Shown: piece by piece, positions 1,727 to 19,048 of the stretch
Layout: every line of letters starts with the position of its first letter
Numbering within the stretch: the first letter of the stretch is position 1
Origin: Pristiophorus japonicus
Lineage: Eukaryota
Assembly (NCBI RefSeq): GCF_044704955.1
Contig: NC_091978.1
Span: 208,382,001 to 208,446,000 of the forward strand
Reading direction: 5' to 3'
DNA length: 64,000 bases
Program-made: the position numbers and the translations under genes
Notes under the pieces: generated by a model
What the model saw: only the letters and a program-made list of their open reading frames with translations
The model's database searches: none
What the model was told of the DNA's origin: nothing

Positions 1727-4700
1727 TGTTGTGTATCTGTAAAGCATGCACTCCCATGTTCCACCACCAGGGAGCGCATCCCCTGAAGTCCCAAGGGATC
1801 CCAGCATCCCTTGGAGCACTGTATATAAGCCGGCCCCTAAGGCCTGTTCCTCACTCTGGAGTGTCTTAATAAAGACTGAGGTCACTGTTACTTTGACCTC
1901 CCTGTGTGCAGTCTCATCTGTGTTAGGAACACAATAACTGGCGACGAGTATAATAATCCAATGCAAAGATACAGCAAACTGTGGGCATCCTGGAGAAGTT
2001 CTCGGAGGGTGAGGACTGGGAAGCCTATGTCGAACGGCTAGACCATTACTTTGTAGCCAACGAGCTGGACGGAGAAGGAAGCGCTGCAAAAAGGAGAGCG
2101 GTCCTCCTCACAGTCTGCAGGGCACCGATCTACAGCCTCATGAAGAATCTTCTGGCTCCGGTGAAACCCACAGATAAGTCGTATGAGGAGCTGTGTACAC
2201 TGGTTCAGGAGCATCTTAACCCGAGGGAGAGCGTGCTGATGGCGAGGTATCGGTTCTACACGTGCCAACGATCTGAAGGTCAGGAAGTGGCGAGCTACGT
2301 CGCCGAGCTAAGGCGACTTGAAGGACAATGTGAGTTTGATGGCGACCTGGAGCAAATGCTCAGAGACTTTTTTGTACTGGGCATTGGCCACGAGACCATC
2401 CTACGAAAACTTTTGACTGTAGAGACACCGACCCTCAGTAAGGCCATTGCGATAGCACAGGCGTTTGTGTCCACCAGTGAGAACGCCAAACAAATCTCTC
2501 AGCACACAAGTGCTAGCAATGTTCATAAATTAACTCGAACAGTGTTTGTGAGCAGAAATGTACAGGGCAGAAACCACGAGTCTGCAACTGCCAGCAGACC
2601 TCAGGTGACCCAGATGACTCAGAGTCCGCAACAAAGGATGAATGCAAGGTAATTCACACCTTGTTGGCGTTGTGGAGACTTCTATTCAGCCTATTCATGC
2701 TGCTTCAAAAGGGTATGTGGAACTGTGGAACAATGGGGCACCTCCAACGAGCTGCAAGCTCTGCAAAACCTGCTAACCACCACGTGGCAGAGGAAGATCA
2801 GTCCATGGTGGATCAAAACAATTTTGAGCCTCAGAAAGAGGAGGCAGATGCTGAAGTACACGGGGTGCACACATTTTTGACGAAATGTCCACCTATAATG
2901 CTAAATGTAAAATTGAATGGCTTACCCGTAGCCATGGAACTGGACACTGGCGCTAGCCAATCTATCATGAGTAAAAAGATGTTTAAGAGACTGTGGTGCA
3001 ACAAGGCACTCAGACCAGTCCTGAGCCCCATCCACACAAAACTGAGAATGTACACCAAAGAGCTTATCACTGTTCTGGGCAGCACCATGGTCAAGGTCAC
3101 CTATGAGGGCACGGTGCACAAACTGCCACTCTGGATTGTCCCAGGCAATGGCCCCATACTGCTTAGAAGAGCTGGCTGGGCAAAATCCGCTGGAACTGGG
3201 ATGACATCCGAGCGCTATCACATGTCGATGAAGCTTCATGTATCCAGGTTCTTAACAAATTTCCTTCCCTCTTTGAGCCAGGCATTGCAAACTTTTTCGG
3301 GGCAAAGGTGCGGATCCACTTGGTCCCAGAGGCACGACCCATTCACCACAAGGCGCGAGCGGTACCTCACATGATGAGGGAGAGAGTGGAAATCGAGCTG
3401 GACAGGCTGCAACGCGAGGGCATCATCTCCCCAGTGGAATTCAGCGAGTGGGCCAGCCCGATTGTTCCAGTACTCAAAAGTGATGGCACAGTCAGGATTT
3501 GCGGCGATTATAAAGTAGCTATTAATCGTTTCTCGCTACAGGACCAATACCCGCTACCTAAGGCAGGCGACCTATTTGCGACGCTGGCAGGAGGCAAGAC
3601 GTTCACCAAGCTCGACCTGACTTCGGCCTACATGACGCAGGAGCTGGAAGAGTCTTTGAAGGTCCTCACCTGCATCAACATGCACAAGGGACTGTTCATC
3701 TACAACAGATGCCCGTTTGGAATTCGGTCGGTTGCAGCGATCTTCCAGAGAAACATGGAGAGCCTACTCAAGTCAGTACCATGCACGGGACAACATATTG
3801 GTCACGGGTCGGGACACCGTCGAGTACCTACAAAACCTGGAGGAGGTCCTCCAGTGACTGGATCGTGTAGGGCTGCAGCTGAAGAGGCCGAAATGCGTCT
3901 TCATGGCAACAGAAGTGGAGTTTTTGGGGAGAAAGTTCGCGGCAGATGGCATTCGGCCCACAGACGCCAAGACAGAGGCTATCAGGAACGCACCCAGGCC
4001 ACAGAACGTCACGGTCGTTCCTGGGGCTCCTCAACTATTTTGGTAACTTCCTACCAGGGTTAAGCACCCTCTTAGAGCCCCTACATGTGTAAAGGTGAGA
4101 ACTGGGTATGGGGAAAAAACCAAGTAATTGCTTTTGAGAAAGCCAGAAACATTTTATACTCCAACAAGCTGCGTGTATTGTATAACCCATGGAAAAGACT
4201 TGTGCTAGCATGTGATGCATCGTCGTACGGAGTCGGGTGTGTATTACAACTAGCTAACATTGCGGGGAAGTTGCAACCTGTCGCCTATGCCTCCAGGAGC
4301 TTGTCTAAGGCCGAGAGGGCCGACAGCATGATTGAGAAAGAGGCATTAGCGTGTGTGTTCGGGGTAAAGAAAATGCATCAGTACCTGTTTGGCCTCAAAT
4401 TTGAGCTGGAAACCGATCACAAGCCCCTCATATCCCTGTTCGCTGAAAACAAGGGATAAATACTAATGCCTCAGCCTGCATACAAAGGTGGGCACTCGCG
4501 CTATCAGCGTATAACTATACCATCTGTCACAGGTCAGGCACCGAGAACTGTGCAGATGCTCTCAGTCAACTACCATTTCCCACCACGGGGTTGGAAATGA
4601 CGCAGCCTGCAAACTTGTTGATGGTGGCGCAGCCCGCAGACTTGTTGATGGTCATGGAAGCGTTTGAGAATGATAAATCACCTGTTACGGCCCGCCAGAT

Positions 4701-6281
4701 TAGGACTTGGACCAGCCAAGATCATCTGCTGTCCCTAGTAAAAAACTGTGTACTGCATGGGAGCTGGGCCAGCATCCCCGTTGAAATGCAAGAGCTAATC
4801 AAGCCGTTCCAGTGGTAAAAGGATGAGCTGTCCATTCAGGCAGATTGCCTGTTGTGGGGTAACCATGTCGTGCTACCCAAAAAGGGCAGGGAGACGTTCA
4901 TCTCGGATCTCCACAGCACACACCCGAGTATAGTAATGATGAAAGTGATAGTCAGATCCCACGTGTGGTGGCCTGGTATCGACTCTGACTTAGAGTCCTG
5001 TGTACGGCAATGCAACGTGTGTGCTCAGTTGAGCAACGCGCCCAGAGAAGCACCACTAAGTTTGTGGTCCTAGCCCTTCAGACCATGGTCGAGGATCCAT
5101 GTCGACTATGCAGGCCCGTTTCTTGGTAAAATGTTCCTGGTGGTGGTGGATGCTTTTTCAAAATGGATTGAATGTGAAATAATGTCGGGAAGCACCACCA
5201 CTGCCACCATTGAAAGCCTGAGGGCCATGTTTGGCACTCACGGCCTGCCTGACATACTGGTCAGTGACAACGGGCCATGTTTCACCAGTGCCGAATTTAA
5301 AGAATTCATGACCCGCAATGAGATAAAACATGTCACCTCAGCCCGTTTAAACCAGCCTCCAATGGGCAGGCAGAGCGGGCAGTATAAACAATCAAACAGA
5401 GCCTTAAGCGAGTCACAGAAGGCTCACTCCAAACCCGCCTGTCCCGAGTACTGCTCAGCTACCGCACGAGACCCCACTCGCTCACAGGGGTGCCTCCGGC
5501 TGGGCTACTCTTGAAAAGGACACTTAAAACCAGCCTCTCGCTGGTTCACCCCAACCTGCATGATCAGGTAGAGAGCAGACGGCAGCAACAAAATGTAAAT
5601 GATGGTCGTGCCACTGTGTCACGGGAAATTGATTTGAATGACCCTGTGTATGTGCTAAACTATGGACACGGTCCTAAATGGATCGCGGGCACGGTGAGCT
5701 AAAGAAGGGAGTAGGGTGTTTGTAGTCAAACTAGACAATGGACAAATTTGCAGAAAGCACCTGGACCAAACGAGGCTGCGGTTCACAGACTGCCCTGAAC
5801 AACCCACAGCAGACACCACCTTTTTCGAGCCCACAACACACACCCAAAGGATCAATGATACCACCCCGGACCAGGAAATCGAACCCATCACGCCCAACAG
5901 CCCAGCTAGGCCAGGCTCACCCAGCAGTCCTGCAGGGCCAACAATACGCCAGCCCAGCGAGGGCACAACCAACACACCAGAACAGACATTTGTACTGAGG
6001 CAGTCCACCAAGGAAAGAAAGGCTCCCGACCGCCTCACCTTGTTTTCACTTTGACTTTGCGGAGGAGTGATGTTGTGTATCTGTAAAGTATGCACTCCCA
6101 TGTTCCGCCACCAGGGAGTACATCCCCTGAAGTCCCAAGGGATCCCAGCATCCCTTGGGAGCACTGTATATAAGCCGGCCCCTAAGGCCTGTTACTCACT
6201 CTGGAGTGTCTTAATAAAGACTGAGGTCACTGTTACTTTAACCTCCCTGTGTGCAGTCTCATCTGTGTTCGGAACACAATA
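1727..6281 (+). mobile_element. Full-length decayed Gypsy (Mag-clade-like) LTR retrotransposon B; LTRs 1727-1936 and 6071-6281; TSD CATAC
   Basis: The ~210-bp LTRs differ by ~7 substitutions and 1 indel. 5-bp TSD at 1722-1726 and 6282-6286. PBS TGGCGACGAG at 1939. Domains in order: gag, protease LDTGAS, RT (WASPIVPV, LDLTSAY), RNase H (CDASSYG, TDHKPL), integrase (HPS..C..C, SDNG). Several frameshifts and stops. Confidence 0.96.
1939..1948 (+). promoter_or_regulatory. Primer-binding site complementary to the tRNA-Ser(GCT) 3' end
   Basis: TGGCGACGAG lies 2 nt after the 5' LTR. Variants occur at 8531 (TGGCAACGAG) and on the minus strand at 37813 (TGGCGATGAG). Confidence 0.8.
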
Positions 6282-8316: not shown

Positions 8317-11300
8317 TGTTATATATATGGACTTGTATTTGCTCTGTACAGCCACCAGAGGGCTCATCCCCTGGAGTCCCAAGGGATCCCATAATCCCTT
8401 GGGAGCACAGGTATTTAACGAGGCTTCACAGGTTGGAGAGGCACTCTGGAGACTTGCAATAAAAGACTATGGTCACACTTTACTTTGAGCTCATAGTGTT
8501 CAGTCTGACTCTTTCGCCATACACAACAACTGGCAACGAGATACAGATAGCGAACCCAAAGATGCAGAGAACAGTGGGCATCCTGGAGAAATTCTCAGAG
8601 GGAGATGATTGGGAAACTTTTGTGGAGCGACTCGACCAATACTTTGTGGCCAACGAGTTGGATCGGGAAGAGAGTGTTGCCAAACGAAGGGCGATCTCCT
8701 CACCGTCTATGGGGCACCAATGTATGGCCTCATGAAGAATCTGCTCACTCCAGCGAAACCCACGGAGAAATCGTACGACGATTTGTGCACACTGGTCCGA
8801 GAGCATTTGAACCCAAAGGAAAATGTTCTGATGGCGAAGTACCGGTTCTACACCCACAAAAGGCCAGGAAGTGGCGAGTTATGTCACCGAGCTAAGACGC
8901 CTTGCAGGACATTGCGAATTTGATGGACATTTGGAGCACATGCTCAGAGACTTTTTCATACTTGACATTGGCCATAAAGCCATACTTCGCAAACTTTTGA
9001 CTGTAGAGATCCCAACCTTGAGTAAGGCCATAGCGATAGCCCAGGCGTTCATTGCCATCAGTGACAATACGAAGGAAATCTCTCAGCACACAAGTGCTGC
9101 TACAAGTACTGTGAACAAAGTGATGTTGTTTTCGAATCGTAACGTACAGGGCAGGTCACATATACCTGCAGCTACACATCCGCAGATGACTCAGAGTCCA
9201 CCATCAAGGGTGATGAATGCAAGACCATTAAAACCTTGTTGGCGCGAAGGGGGTGATCATCGTTTGCATTCATGCTGATTCAAAGAGTACGTTTGCAAGG
9301 GCTGTGGAACAATGGGACACCTTCAACAAGTGTGCAGGCGAGCTGCAAAGCCTGTTAAACCTGCAAACCATCATGTTGCAGAGGAGGACAGATCCACGGA
9401 GGATCACGACGAACCAGAGCCTCAGAGGGAGGAGGCAGAAGTACATGGGGTGCGCACATTCACCACATATTGTCCCCCGATAATGCTGAATGTTGAACTA
9501 AATGGACTCCCGGTGTCAATGGAGCTGGACACGGGCGCAAGCTAGTCCATCATGGGCAAAAAGATTTTCGAAAGGCTGTGGTGTAACAAGGCCTCAAGGC
9601 CAGTCTTAACTCCAGTTCGCACGAAACTAAGAACTTACACGAAAGAACTGATTCCTGTAATCGGCAGTACTACTGTAAAGGTCTCCTATGATGGAGCGGT
9701 GCACAAGCTACCACTCTGGGTAGTACCGGGCGATGGTCTCATGCTGCTCGGCAGGAGCTAGCTGGGAAAGATATGCTGGAACTGGGACAACGTCCGAGCG
9801 CTGTCGCCCGCTGACGACACTTCGTGTGCCCAGGTCTTAAACAAATTTCCTTCGTTGTTCGAACCAGGCATCGGGAAATTCCAAGGAGCAAAAGTGCAGA
9901 TCCACCTAATTCCGGGGGCACGACCCATCCATCACAAGGCGAGAGCAGTAGCGTACATGATGTGAGAAAGGGTAGAGATCAAGCTAGAGAGGGCATCAGT
10001 TCACTGATCGAGTTCAGCGAGCGGGCCAGTCCTATTGTCCCAGTCCTCAAGGGAGATGGCACCATCAGAATCTATGGCAATTACAAAGTAACTATGAACC
10101 GTTTCTCCCTGCAGGACCAATACCCACTACCAATGTCCGACGACCTCTTTGCAACGCTGGCGGGAGGAAAGACATTCATGAAGCTGGATCTGACTTCAGC
10201 CTATATGACGCAGGAACTGGAGGAATCATTGAAGGCCCTCACCTGCATCAACACGCACAAAGTTATTTTTGTTTATTACAGATGCCCGTTTGGAATCCGA
10301 TCAGCGGCGGCGATATTCCAGAGAAACATGGAAAGTTTACTGAAGTTGGTCCCGCACACTGTGGTCTTCCAGGATGACATCTTGGTCACAGGTCGGAACA
10401 CAGTCGAGCATCTGCAGAATCTGGAGGAGGTTCTTAGTCGGCTCAACCGCGTGGGGCTCAGGTTAAAATGCTCGAAGTGCATTTTCCTGGTGCCTGAAAT
10501 GGAATTCTTGGAAAGGAGGATTGCGGCGGACGGCATCAGGCCCACCAACGCGAAGACGGAGGCAATCGAGAATGCACCGAGGCCACAGAATGTGACGAAG
10601 CTGCGGTCGTTTCTGGGACTCTTGAACTAATTTGGTAACTTCTTACCGGGTCTCAGCACACTGCTAGAACCACTACATGTCTTACTACAAAAAGGGGACG
10701 AATGGGTTTGGGGCAAAAGCCAAGAAAATATCTTTGTAATGCTCAAGAAAATTGCTTGTGTTGTATGATCCATGTAAGCGTTTGGTACTAGCATGTGATG
10801 CATCGTCATATGGCGTCGGGTGAGTATTGCAACAAGCTAATGATATTTGGAAACTGCAACCGGTTGCTTATGGATCCAGGAGTCTGTCTAAGGCTGAGAG
10901 AGCCTACAGCATGATTGAAAAAGAAGCGTTAGCGTGCGTCCATGGGGTAAAGAAAATGCATTGTAGAATTTACCAATATCTCGCAAAGATTCCAAGTACC
11001 TTTTCCCCTGCAGAGGAGAAGAATCCCTTTCTGGGCTTTTAAAATGAGTTTAAAGGGGCAGACGAAGCCTGCGGGGGATAAAAGGGGATGCATTCATGGA
11101 GACCCCCCCCCCCCCAGTGTTTGGATTCATAGGAAAGGGAATTCAAAATTGACCTAAATTACAGAAGCTTGAGATCCCCTAAAACATCTATGATAACGAG
11201 CAAATCAATTTTAAGATTCTACAACATTTTGGCTGCGAAAAAGAGTTACCAAATACAGGAGGTGGGGCCTACCTCTGAAGCAAATTCGTGTATTAAGGAT

Positions 11301-14300
11301 CCCAGGCTATTCACCCCCTAAGAGATAATCAAATTACCCAATCAAGCACAATGGAAATCATGGTCAGGAAACTGGACAATCCTAAAACAATGCAAAACCA
11401 GTGATAGCACATTCTCACACCCTAATCGAGTTACTGCTGACAAAGGAGACATTTGAAAATCAATGGACAGAACAGTTTAAACAGAGCCCAAGAGATTTGA
11501 TGGGAGATAACAGAGCCTTTTTTTGGGATATATCTATCCCCCAGTTTTACAAGGAAAAACTAGCAGAACACAGACTGGAACTCGCACAGACTCGAACAGA
11601 ACACAGACTGGAACTCGCACTGATTCGAACAAGGACACAGACTGGAACACAGACACAGACACAAGCAGCCTGCTTCCTCTACAGTGAAGAAATGGAATAG
11701 TGAAGGAAACTACCAGAACTGATCAGGAACTGACCGAGCACAAGGCCCATGAAACGGAAGGTTGTCAGCAACCAAATTGACAACCACTCTACAATCAACT
11801 TCTGAATGACCCAACGGGGGAGAAATTACCAAAGGGACTAACTAAAACTATTCCTAACCAAAGAAAGTGGGTACTTACCCCATACATCCAAAACGCAACT
11901 TAGCGCATCAACGGACGCACCCCAACCGAAGACTACGCAGTCCGAAGTCCTCTCCTCTGTCCGGGGTACGGCTCGCCTAGAAGGCCAAGTGCAGTGAACC
12001 CCGAAACTGCAATTCACCGGCAACTGTCTAAAGGGATTGGTGAGCATAGCCCCTGAACCCTCAGAGCTATAACTTAGTTAGTCAGGGGAATTGGGAGGGG
12101 GGAGGCTGGGATAACTTGTGTAAATGTATCTGCATTCTCCTCTTTACCCCATTTAGAGTTTAAGCTGTATTCTTTTCCCCACAGGCTGTAATTTGACATT
12201 TTATTCAATGTGTTGTATCCCTCAGTGTGTATTGGTCTGTGTGTGTTATTAAAGGTGTGCCTTTTACTTCTTTTTAAACACAATAAAGCCATACCTGCTT
12301 CCTACCTTGAAACCGATTGTCTGTCCAAGTCTGTCACAGTCCCTTCATAATTCCAGTGTCTAGAACCAAGGGTGTGGGAGCGATTCGGAACCGCTCATAT
12401 AAGGTCAGAAGGGAAAGCTGACCCCTGCAAACCACCCCTTACAGCATCAATACCTGTTTGGATTAAAATTCGAATTGGAAACTGACCATAAGCCACTTAT
12501 ATCCCTGTTTTCCGAGAGTAAAGGGATAAATACAAATGCATTGGCCCGCATCCAGAGATGGGCGCTCACGTTGTCCGCATACAACTACGCCATCCGCCAC
12601 AGGCCAGGCACAGAAAACTGCGCCGATGCGCTCAGTAGGCTGCGATTGCCCACCATGGGGTGGAAATGGCGCAGCCCGCAGATCTAGCCATGGTTATGGA
12701 AGCATTTGAGAGTGAGCAATCACCCGTCACTGCCCAGCAGATCAAAATCTGGACAAGCCAGGACCCCTTATTATCTCTAATCAAAAGCTGTGTGCTTCAC
12801 GGGAGCTGGTCCAGTGTCCCAGTGGAAATGCAGGAAGAGATAAAGCCATTCCAGCGGCGCAAAGATGAAATGTCTATACAGGCAGACTGCCTTCTGTGGG
12901 GCAATCAAGTAGTGGTCCCCAAGAAGGGCAGAGACACCTTCATCAATGACCTCCACAGTACCCACCCAGGCATCGTAATGATTGAAAGCGATAGCCAGAT
13001 ACCACGTGTGATGGCCCGGTATCGATGCGGACAGAGTCCTGCGTTCACAGATGTAATACATGCTCGCAGTTAAGCAATGTACCCAGGGAGGCGCCGCTAA
13101 GTTTATGGTCTTGGCCCTCCAAACCGTGGTCTAGGGTACGCGTCGACACTGCAGGCCCGTTCTTGGGTAAAATGTTCCTTGCGGTTGTAGACGCGTACTC
13201 CAAGTGGATTGAATGTGAGATAATGTCGGCTAGCACGTCCACTGCTACTACTGAAAGCCTGAGGGCCATGTTTGCCACACACGGCTTACCCAATGTCCTG
13301 GCGAGTGACAACGGGCCATGTTTTACCAGTACTGAGTTCAAAGAATTCATGACCCATAACGGGATGAAACATGTCACATCTGCCCTGTTTAAACCAGTGT
13401 CCAATGGTCAGGCAGAGAGAGCAGTGCAAACCATCAAGCAAGGCTTGAAGAGGGTAACTGAAGGCTCACTGCAGACTCGCCTATTCCGAGTCCTGCTTAG
13501 CTACCGCATGAGACCCCACTCGCTCACTGGAATCCCACCTGCTGAACTGCTCATGAAAAGACAAGGCTCTCATTAGTTCACCCTGATCTACATGAACAGG
13601 TAGAAAGCAGGCAGCTTCAACAAAGTGCATACCATGATAGCGCAAATGCGTCATGTGAGATTGAAATCAATGATCCTGTATTTGAATTAAATTATGGACA
13701 AGGTCCCAAGTGGCTTCCCGGCACTGTCGTGACCAAAGAGGGGAGCAGGGGGTTTCGGGCCAAACTTTCAAATGGACTCATTCACCGGAAACACTTGGAC
13801 CAAATCAAACTCAGATTCACAGACTATCGTGAGCAACCCACCTTGATCCCTACCTTTTTTGATCCCTCAACATACACACCAGTGGCAACCGGCACCACAG
13901 TTGACCACGAAGCAGAACCCATCATCCGCAGCAGCCCTGCAGGGCCCAACACACCAGGCAACCCAGCAAGGCCAGCTGCACAGCAGCCCAGCGAGGGCCC
14001 AACAAATGATTCAACAACACCAGCTTTCACACCGAGACGATCGACTCACCTTGTAAATAGTTACACTATTGACTTTGGTGGGGGGGGGGGGGCAAGTGTT
14101 GTTATATGTTTGGACTTGTATTTACTCTGTACAGCCACCAGAGGGCTCATCCCCTGGAATCCCAAGGGATCCCATCATCCCTTAGGAGCACAGGTATTTA
14201 AGGAGGCCTTATAGGTTGGAGAGGCTCTCTGGAGACCTGCAATAAAAGACTCAGGCCACACTTTACTTTGAGCTCACAATGTTCAGTATGATTCTTTCTC

Positions 14301-14311
14301 CATACACAACA
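8317..14311 (+). mobile_element. Full-length decayed Gypsy (Mag-clade-like) LTR retrotransposon C; LTRs 8317-8528 and 14100-14311; TSD CACAC
   Basis: 212-bp TG..CA LTRs with ~20 mismatches. TSD at 8312-8316 and 14312-14316. PBS at 8531; G-rich PPT ~14076-14096. gag, PR, RT (VFQDDIL), RH and IN all present; interrupted at 10962-12443. Confidence 0.96.
10962..12443 (+). mobile_element. 1482-bp solo LTR (retrovirus-like or long-LTR retrotransposon) with 4-bp TSD GCAT
   Basis: TGTA...TACA ends, with GCAT at 10958-10961 and 12444-12447. It splits host RNase H KKMH|QYLFG exactly. TATAA at 12068, AATAAA at 12282, 33-bp tandem repeats at 11564-11647. Confidence 0.85.
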
Positions 14312-17502: not shown

Positions 17503-17827
17503 TAATGTCTACCATGAGAAAGTCACTTAAATCTGTTATTAGGGACAGAGTGACTGAGCACTTGGACAAATATTAACTGATCAGCGAGCCAGCATAGATT
17601 TGTAAACGGAAAGTCATGTCAAATGAACCAAATTGAATATTTCAGTAAATAAAGTGGTAGATAAGGGAGTATACGTAGATGTTATTTATATGGACTTCCA
17701 AAAGGCATGCAATAAGGTTCCACATACAAAACTATTAACCAAAATGAGAGCACATGGAATTGGAGATAACCTATTGACATGGGTAGGGAATTGGTTGGGA
17801 GTAGGGTTAATGGGTATATACTCAAAT

Positions 17828-18960
17828 AGAAACATAGAAAATAGGTGCAGGAGTAGGCCATTCGGCCCTTCTAGCCTGCACCGCCATTCAATGAGTTCAT
17901 GGCTGAACATGCAACTTCAGTACCGCCGTTCCTGCTTTCTCGCCATACCCCTTGATCCCCCTAGTAGTAAGGACTTCATCTAACTCCCTTTTGAATATAT
18001 TTAGTGAATTGGCCTCAACAACTTTCTGTGGTAGAGAATTCCACAGGTTCACCACTCTCTGGGTGAAGATCTTTCTTCTCATCTCGGTCCTAAATGGCTT
18101 ACCCCTTATCCTTAGACTGTGACCCCTGGTTCTGGACTTCCCCAACATTGGGAACATTCTCTGTGCATCTAACCTGTCCAATCCCAACAGAATTTTACAT
18201 GTTTCTATGAGATTCCCTCTCATTCTTCTAAATTCCATTGAACACAAGCCCAGTTGATCCAGTCTTTCTTGATAGGTCAGTCCCGCCATCCCGGGAATCA
18301 GTCTGGTGAACCTTCGCTGCACTCCCTCAATAGCAAGAATGTCCTTCCTCAGGTTAGGAGACCAAAACTGTACACAATACTCCAGGTGTGGCCTCACCAA
18401 GGCTATGTACAACTGTAGCAACACCTCCCTGCCCCTGTACTCAAATCCCCTCGCTATGAAGGCCAACATGCCATTTGCTTTCTTAACCGCCTGCTGTACC
18501 TGCATGCCAACCTTCAATGACTGATGTACCATGACACCCAGGTCTCGTTGCACCTCCCCTTTTCCTAATCTGTCACCATTCAGATAATAGTCTGTCTCTC
18601 TGTTTTTACCACCAAAGTGGATAACCTCACATTTATCCACATTATACTTCATCTGCCATGCATTTGCCCACTCACCTAACCTATCCAAGTCACTCTGCAG
18701 CCTCATAGCATCCTCCTCGCAGCTCACACTGCCACCCAACTTACTGTCATCCGCAAATTTGGAGATACTACATTTAATCCCCTCGTCTAAATCATTAATG
18801 TACAGTGTAAACAGCTGGGGTCCCAGCACAGAACCTTGTGGTACCCCACTAGTCACTGCCTGCCATTCTGAAAAGTACCCATTTACTCCTACTCTTTGCT
18901 TCCTGTCTGACAACCAGTTCTCAATCCACATCAGCACACTACCCCCAATCCCATGTGCTT
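17828..18960 (-). mobile_element. Young CR1 LINE, 5'-truncated, with an open RT C-terminal ORF (346 aa, 17897-18937)
   Basis: SGVPQGSVLGPQLF..FADDSKL..LVRPHLEYCVQFW is uninterrupted; CR1 3' UTR with TTCTAT-type tail. Confidence 0.93.
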
Positions 18961-19048
18961 TGTCACAATGTGACTAGTAATATCCCCCAGGAGCTGTATT
19001 GGGGCCTCAGCTTTTCACTATATTTATAAATTTCACTATATTTATAAA

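Follow-up and report, generated by a model that had tools for sequence, protein, structure and literature searches.

The question considered here is what kind of element left a 1,482-bp long terminal repeat (LTR) in the genome of Pristiophorus japonicus. The LTR occupies positions 10962 to 12443 of the 64,000-nucleotide stretch that was analyzed (contig NC_091978.1, positions 208,382,001 to 208,446,000, assembly GCF_044704955.1), referred to below as the window. A preliminary description, made from the letters of this DNA, had read it as the solo LTR of an endogenous retrovirus (ERV), possibly foamy-like, with an accessory open reading frame overlapping U3. The LTR starts with TGTA, ends with TACA and is bordered by two directly read, unstranded copies of the target site GCAT (10958 to 10961 and 12444 to 12447), exactly as had been described; its plus-strand orientation is taken from the positions of the primer-binding site (PBS) and polypurine tract (PPT) in paired copies. 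With a probability of roughly 0.8, we conclude that it is the solo LTR of a large ERV family, designated family A, which has gag and pol and no env, is likely related to snakehead retrovirus (SnRV), likely lost its env and likely spread by retrotransposition in germ cells.

A search of the 5.9-Gb genome (G000) showed that all 40 scored matches to the LTR were 93 to 100% identical, with 38 of them essentially full length. The first 22 nt had at least 1,427 exact matches, compared with 0 for the reversed control, and a single search pattern recovered at least 96 exact LTR-PBS junctions, both counts being lower bounds for family A. Of 20 copies that were fetched, nine proved to be solo LTRs between perfect 4-bp duplicates, and the other 11 had a PBS, a PPT or interior sequence directly beside the LTR. 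The search for paired LTRs suggested by the preliminary description was productive, yielding paired copies together with many further copies that share the same termini. All three paired copies had a 4-bp duplication (one of them mismatched), and their LTRs differed by Kimura two-parameter (K2P) distances of 0.025, 0.043 and 0.032. These distances translate into 57 to 97 million years at the shark rate assumed in PMC4422223 versus 6 to 10 million years at a mammalian rate, both rates being uncalibrated here. Several LTR subfamilies were also observed on near-identical interiors (94 to 96%), diverging upstream of LTR position 823 (L027-L055, L129-L136), and one pair was 99% identical. One family A provirus was interrupted by an insertion containing an 80-bp tandem array (L024:2183-2609).

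The interior of the paired copies was found to contain a gag with a weak coiled-coil match and a CCHC knuckle (CX2CX4HX4C), followed by a pol in the order protease, reverse transcriptase (RT) with a YVDD motif, Gypsy-type tether RNase H, second RNase H and integrase. A protein search also revealed a sister family, family B, with 75% DNA and 80% Pol identity to family A; the zf-CCHC match had an E value of 0.001 in family A and 0.0002 in family B. When compared with a host tRNA-Arg(CCG) gene extended by CCA, the PBS of two of seven copies showed full complementarity (18 of 18 positions), and that of the other five was complementary at 14 to 17 of 18. The 3' pattern of this tRNA had a single exact match in the genome (L025:1449-1522). 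On the PPT side, the TG of the LTR was preceded by a G-run and AA in family A and by a G-run and ATTA in family B. Ty3/Gypsy membership was rejected on the basis of the two RNase H domains and an RT that lies outside Gypsy, and the origin of the window LTR by recombination of a true ERV, as originally proposed, is borne out by the dual RNase H and by an RT that falls inside the canonical retroviruses (see below). The preliminary description had set such a retrovirus against an env-less Gypsy or BEL element; the paired copies are indeed env-less, but their pol is retroviral and not of the Gypsy/BEL type. Of the gag-pol-env interior and PBS that it hoped to recover, gag, pol and the PBS were obtained but no env.

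gag and pol were found to share one frame. The sequence between them was TGACTAG in 27 of the 31 copies of family A, a count that includes the query copy itself; the remaining junctions were TGACTGG (two copies), TGACTAA (one) and TGTCTAG (one). The same TGACTAG was present in all eight family B copies, and TGA-CGG was present in all four older relatives with an aligned protease start. Two of the six older loci read stopped before the junction, and when 11 additional older loci were scanned automatically for the junction, none was recovered. A candidate hairpin downstream of the stop gave z scores of -3.1, -5.8 and -2.0 over 200 nt and of +2.6, -0.7 and +0.5 over 100 nt, and third-position conservation beside the gag-pol stop showed no clear excess. 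In a 2026 review of readthrough in animal viruses (PMC13517186), the UGA-CUA and UGA-CGG contexts form an alphavirus-type class and retroviruses are given other contexts, the UGACGA of a zebrafish ERV being close. In the literature searched, the available part of that review included, no UGA-CUAG or UGA-CGG readthrough context was found for retroviruses.

The absence of env from family A was apparent from the spacing between pol and the LTR. In the better-kept copies the pol frame stopped about 550 bp before the LTR, and among 30 loci containing the integrase end, 28 met an LTR 590 to 638 bp on, one met it after 412 bp and one did not meet it within the stretch. Eight further proviral stretches had no extra segment between pol and the LTR, and a search of 61 + 2 family A loci with the family B env as the query gave no match within the element. 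Wider LTR spacing made two proviruses of family A candidates for carrying env, but they hold another repeat there and no env. A repeat at positions 17826 to 18961 of the window is inserted, at 95 to 96% identity, in two family A proviruses (L269:4859-6215, L270:688-1743). The same genome contains a separate class I-like ERV family (L086-L110) that has LTRs of about 300 bp and an env of the gamma type (PF00429), with long open frames in many of its 78 scored matches; in DNA it is unrelated to family A. Env-less ERV families are well established. Since both the sister family B and older relatives carry env, loss is the parsimonious direction, and we infer that family A likely lost its env from a family B-like ancestor.

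Family B has an LTR of 1.3 kb that is partly homologous to the window LTR, with the same ends, the same duplication length and the same type of PBS. The homology to the 5' end of the family B LTR covers positions 11009 to 11380 of the window on the plus strand (score of 136 versus a shuffle maximum of 69). The long LTR is a trait of the lineage and not a sign of an accessory gene. The family B gag has about 666 codons. Its pol has 1,423 codons, a length over which 20 of 121 matches were open (L176-L188, L189-L218). A third frame, env, has about 800 codons; it encodes an Ig-like domain, heptad repeats, a furin site and a membrane anchor, and all 104 of its scored genome matches were at least 97% identical. 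Older, decayed relatives were also observed (L137-L146, L169-L175, L219-L268), with Pol 36 to 74% identical to that of family A and env 23 to 54% identical to that of family B; two of them (L173, L174) had LTRs near 500 to 550 bp.

The family B Env was unlike the gamma-type Env of the same genome and only weakly similar to that of SnRV (20% over 275 amino acids, pairwise E value of 3e-5). Sequence searches of PDB and Pfam gave a weak Ig-like domain as the sole match and no match to F-type proteins. Searching the genome with PF00523 gave no match, but its control gave none either, so this negative carries no weight. A model of the ectodomain, built from 29 rows, was of low confidence (pLDDT, the predicted local accuracy, of 50; pTM, the predicted global score, of 0.39). 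With this model as the query, every match listed by Foldseek against PDB was a paramyxovirus or pneumovirus F protein (best E value of 1e-9, TM-scores of only 0.2 to 0.3). A VIA search placed ten F structures and the foamy Env at ranks 1 to 11, with Z scores from 8.2 to 6.6 and the next match at 4.5; the top match had a root mean square deviation (rmsd) of 6.7 over 296 aligned residues, and the foamy Env a Z score of 6.7 and an rmsd of 9.6 over 258. In the viral structure library BFVD, most matches were F-type glycoproteins, and two were Envs of walleye retroviruses. Together, these matches suggest that the family B Env likely has a paramyxovirus/pneumovirus F-type fold. The walleye matches in BFVD were to the Envs of walleye epidermal hyperplasia virus 1 and walleye dermal sarcoma virus (E values of 3e-8 and 8e-6), a hint that the epsilonretrovirus Env may also be F-type.

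To place the element, its Pol was compared with solved structures and with other RTs. The bit scores were 240 for the murine leukemia virus-type RT, 219 for foamy and 152 for Ty3, with the human immunodeficiency virus RT far lower, and the SnRV Pol gave the same order. Over the RT-tether region, the nearest sequences were an unnamed Logan protein (P0022, 83%) and a fragment from Heptranchias (P0126, about 70%), this shark being the nearest named relative. Identities were 47 to 51% to frog and coelacanth pols (P0023, P0025-P0028), 38% to SnRV and 30 to 32% to foamy viruses. The frog and coelacanth pols are "NYNRIN-like" sequences annotated as host proteins, and no element-level description of them was seen.

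Trees of 71, 34 and 29 rows were built with sequences chosen from several hundred proteins; the foamy RTs were mammalian only, and fish foamy-like ERVs, class II and Odin were not among the rows. The SnRV reference (L111, protein P0096; 10,688 nt) was labeled by eye from the alignment in the supplement of PMC7947760, the Loki references by motifs from the same supplement, the foamy references by a PDB match (L117) or by shared motifs (the others), and the ERV-L-like references by their likeness to P0019 and by dUTPase domains; P0154 was rejected as a foamy reference, being Gypsy. In the RT-tether trees the element fell within the canonical retroviruses (support of 100/100 and 100/98) and outside Loki, Gypsy, class I and the cluster of foamy viruses with ERV-L; the class I clade (100/99 and 100/97) left it out. 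It stood in a polytomy at the base with SnRV and with frog, coelacanth and turtle elements. The RT phylogeny that had been called for therefore confirmed a retrovirus within the canonical group, but it recovered no foamy clade for the element. Lokiretroviruses had been the first lead because of the dual RNase H, the long LTR and the coelacanth and frog matches, and were dropped after a comparison of motifs and an approximately unbiased (AU) test that rejected the element with Loki (p = 0.002). The trees exclude Loki and do not decide between foamy and SnRV; features decide. From these features, family A likely belongs to the SnRV-like group (clade Huo, CmiERV lineage I).

Several points weigh against an SnRV-like, env-less family spreading by itself. 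No tree gave a supported clade of the element with SnRV, the base being a polytomy, and the AU tests rejected neither the grade with SnRV (p = 0.19 and 0.38) nor the element with foamy viruses (p = 0.054 and 0.23). Family A has well over a thousand loci, of which only about 40 were examined for env, and these were picked by their likeness to an env-less copy, so that a rare env-bearing copy is possible. Readthrough, priming, promoter and splicing are predicted from motifs alone. Finally, family B or some other virus may have given help in trans.

If such help had been the rule, family A would have been carried in the particles of family B or of another retrovirus, by complementation in trans and reinfection. 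The existence of a large env-bearing family B with homologous LTRs and the same type of PBS would suit this explanation. However, the ratio of nonsynonymous to synonymous polymorphism (pN/pS) in the family A integrase was 0.48 in frame versus 1.13 and 0.86 in the other frames, indicating purifying selection, and 3 of 31 family A loci were open over the entire fetched gag-pol stretch. The dated family B copies were also younger, with LTR pairs at K2P distances of 0 to 0.010 (5 of 5) versus 0.025 to 0.043 in family A. We therefore consider carriage by another retrovirus unlikely.

A foamy-like ERV with an accessory frame overlapping U3, as first proposed, is very improbable. Foamy viruses and fish foamy-like ERVs (PMC5210030, PMC11468914) resemble family A in the 4-bp duplication and the long LTR, and resemble family B, and family B only, in the F-like Env fold predicted for it, the foamy Env being among the top structural matches noted above. 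The 4-bp duplication is not unique to foamy viruses. Also in favor of this placement, the AU tests did not reject it, and the foamy RTs in the trees were mammalian only. Against it, the foamy PBS is complementary to tRNA-Lys or Asn, the foamy Gag is without a Cys-His box and the foamy PPT-LTR junction is GGGTG (PMC5210030), whereas family A has a tRNA-Arg(CCG) PBS and a Gag with a Cys-His box, and GGGTG is lacking in both families; foamy pol is in another frame with its own start (PMC8278194), unlike the in-frame gag-stop-pol of family A. The RT-tether identity to foamy viruses is also lower than that to SnRV or to the frog and coelacanth pols.

The U3 frame itself is judged not to be a gene. 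It is stop-free for 104 codons on the plus strand (11386 to 11700) and, as had been described, runs for 99 codons from a GTG at 11401, its first Met being codon 39; its length was no more than expected by chance, an equally long frame arising in 978 of 2,000 block shuffles. It was intact in 8 of 24 copies, with other frames of 79 to 92 codons open at about the same frequency or a higher one. Of 16 distinct indels within it, 15 had lengths that are not multiples of three. Within the subfamily its pN/pS was 1.02; against 19 divergent LTRs, every one with indels in this region, it was 0.75. No match to the frame was found in Pfam or Atlas, and the family B LTR had no sense ATG frame longer than 57 codons. 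The accessory-frame claim thus found no sign of selection to sustain it.

That family A is a primitively env-less element of the Odin or lokiretrovirus kind is barely credible. In its favor, an element with two RNase H domains and no env has the layout of Odin (PMC9040795), lokiretroviruses have long LTRs, a dual RNase H, a gag with a coiled coil and an F-like env (PMC7947760), and the element lies near the base of the retrovirus clade. Against it, grouping with Loki was rejected, the family A RT lies outside the Loki clade and is without the Loki RT motifs, and both the sister family and the older relatives carry env. Odin was compared indirectly, by description only. Lokiretroviruses were present in 0 of 6 chondrichthyan genomes in PMC7947760.

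Under the preferred reading, an env-less SnRV-like family, transcription would start in the 5' LTR, Gag would be made from the first frame, and Gag-Pol would likely be made by readthrough of the UGA-CUAG stop. Host tRNA-Arg(CCG) and the purine tract would likely serve as primers in reverse transcription, and the integrase would insert the DNA with a 4-bp duplication, the target in this case being the pol of an older Gypsy. The two LTRs would then likely have recombined with loss of the interior, leaving the solo LTR. The family would have multiplied by retrotransposition in cis inside germ cells, a route named in PMC10435555.

The LTR itself is an ordinary relic. It is inserted in the RNase H region of the pol of a Gypsy element that spans positions 8317 to 14311 on the plus strand, with 212-bp LTRs (8317 to 8528 and 14100 to 14311; K2P distance of 0.10) and a 5-bp duplication, CACAC. 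A related Gypsy at 1727 to 6281 provides the empty site, being continuous across it with one GCAT. The LTR is younger than its host Gypsy, as the preliminary description held, and nesting alone suffices for this. Its lack of relation to the surrounding LTRs likewise stood, with no similarity to the remainder of the window at an E value of 1e-3 or below. The Gypsy at 1727 to 6281 is 72% identical to the host Gypsy and has 210-bp LTRs (K2P distance of 0.034) and a 5-bp duplication, CATAC.

All parts within the LTR are on the plus strand. The 3' 660 bp (11784 to 12443) are 88 to 95% identical across LTR subfamilies with differing upstream parts and likely comprise the promoter-proximal U3, R and U5. 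The three motifs that had been listed were found where they had been placed: a splice-donor-like GGTGAG (12039 to 12044; kept in 21 of 23 other copies), which is part of a segment with homology to the donor-like region in family B, a TATAA (12068 to 12072; 21 of 23 copies) and an AATAAA polyadenylation signal (12282 to 12287; 20 of 23 copies). In addition, a pyrimidine tract with CAG/G at 12170 to 12184, exact in 18 of 23 copies, is a candidate splice acceptor. The family B LTR has a TATA box some 165 nt upstream of its donor-like site, in a region homologous to family A. Since the TATAA at 12068 is downstream of the donor-like site and the family B TATA is upstream of the homologous donor, the former is doubtful as a promoter element and probably does not serve as one.

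What appears new here is family A, its gag-pol stop context and the predicted F-type env of its sister family, for which we found no earlier description. Family A was not found in the literature searched and may already be catalogued in repeat libraries (Repbase, Dfam); an F-type env in the SnRV-like group was likewise not found there, and work from 2024 may already describe such an env in fish retroviruses. An env-less family and an env-bearing sister, each with many copies in one genome, allow a direct comparison of env loss and copy-number growth. If the F-type fold holds, it bears on the origin of the retroviral env. We put forward only tentatively, as something that may well prove otherwise, that the lineage would be a canonical retrovirus combining orthoretrovirus-type gag-pol, alphavirus-type readthrough (UGA-CUA/UGA-CGG) and a paramyxovirus-F-type envelope. 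If so, then together with the foamy, Loki and walleye virus Envs it would suggest that an F-type fusogen was the ancestral retroviral envelope, later replaced by a gamma-type env or lost. The orthoretrovirus Env is described as a different subclass from the F-type (PMC11468914), and the proposal would contradict the independent env gains by Loki and canonical retroviruses that are preferred in PMC9040795. SnRV-like ERVs in cartilaginous fish are already known (PMC4422223; clade Huo, PMC6001957).

Among known systems, SnRV resembles family A in a gag with a coiled-coil (a weak match in both) and CCHC, in the in-frame stop and in the order of protease, RT, tether, RNase H and integrase, and its PBS agrees with that of family A at 13 of 18 positions. 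We take the SnRV PBS to be that of tRNA-Arg, which is not group-wide, since the PBS of CmiERV scaffold 2, an elephant shark ERV, differs by eye. SnRV is unlike family A in its stop context (UAG-GGC), its env and accessory open reading frames and its much shorter LTR. CmiERV lineage I of the elephant shark is a cartilaginous-fish ERV reported to cluster with SnRV (PMC4422223). CmiERV scaffold 2 belongs to this lineage; compared by eye and not by alignment, it shares with family A the motifs ATHKHDCG and PACAP in RT, a CCHC gag and, after it, a TGA. The LTR of CmiERV lineage I is about 830 bp long with TGTT and AACA ends, its PBS is a different one and its env looks gamma-type by eye, whereas family A has a 1.48-kb LTR, a tRNA-Arg(CCG) PBS and no env, and family B has a predicted F-like env. 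The scaffold 2 element (PMC4422223, supplement 1) combines a pol like that of family A with an env that by eye is gamma-type and similar to that of L090, a combination suggesting that env may have been exchanged within the SnRV-like group.

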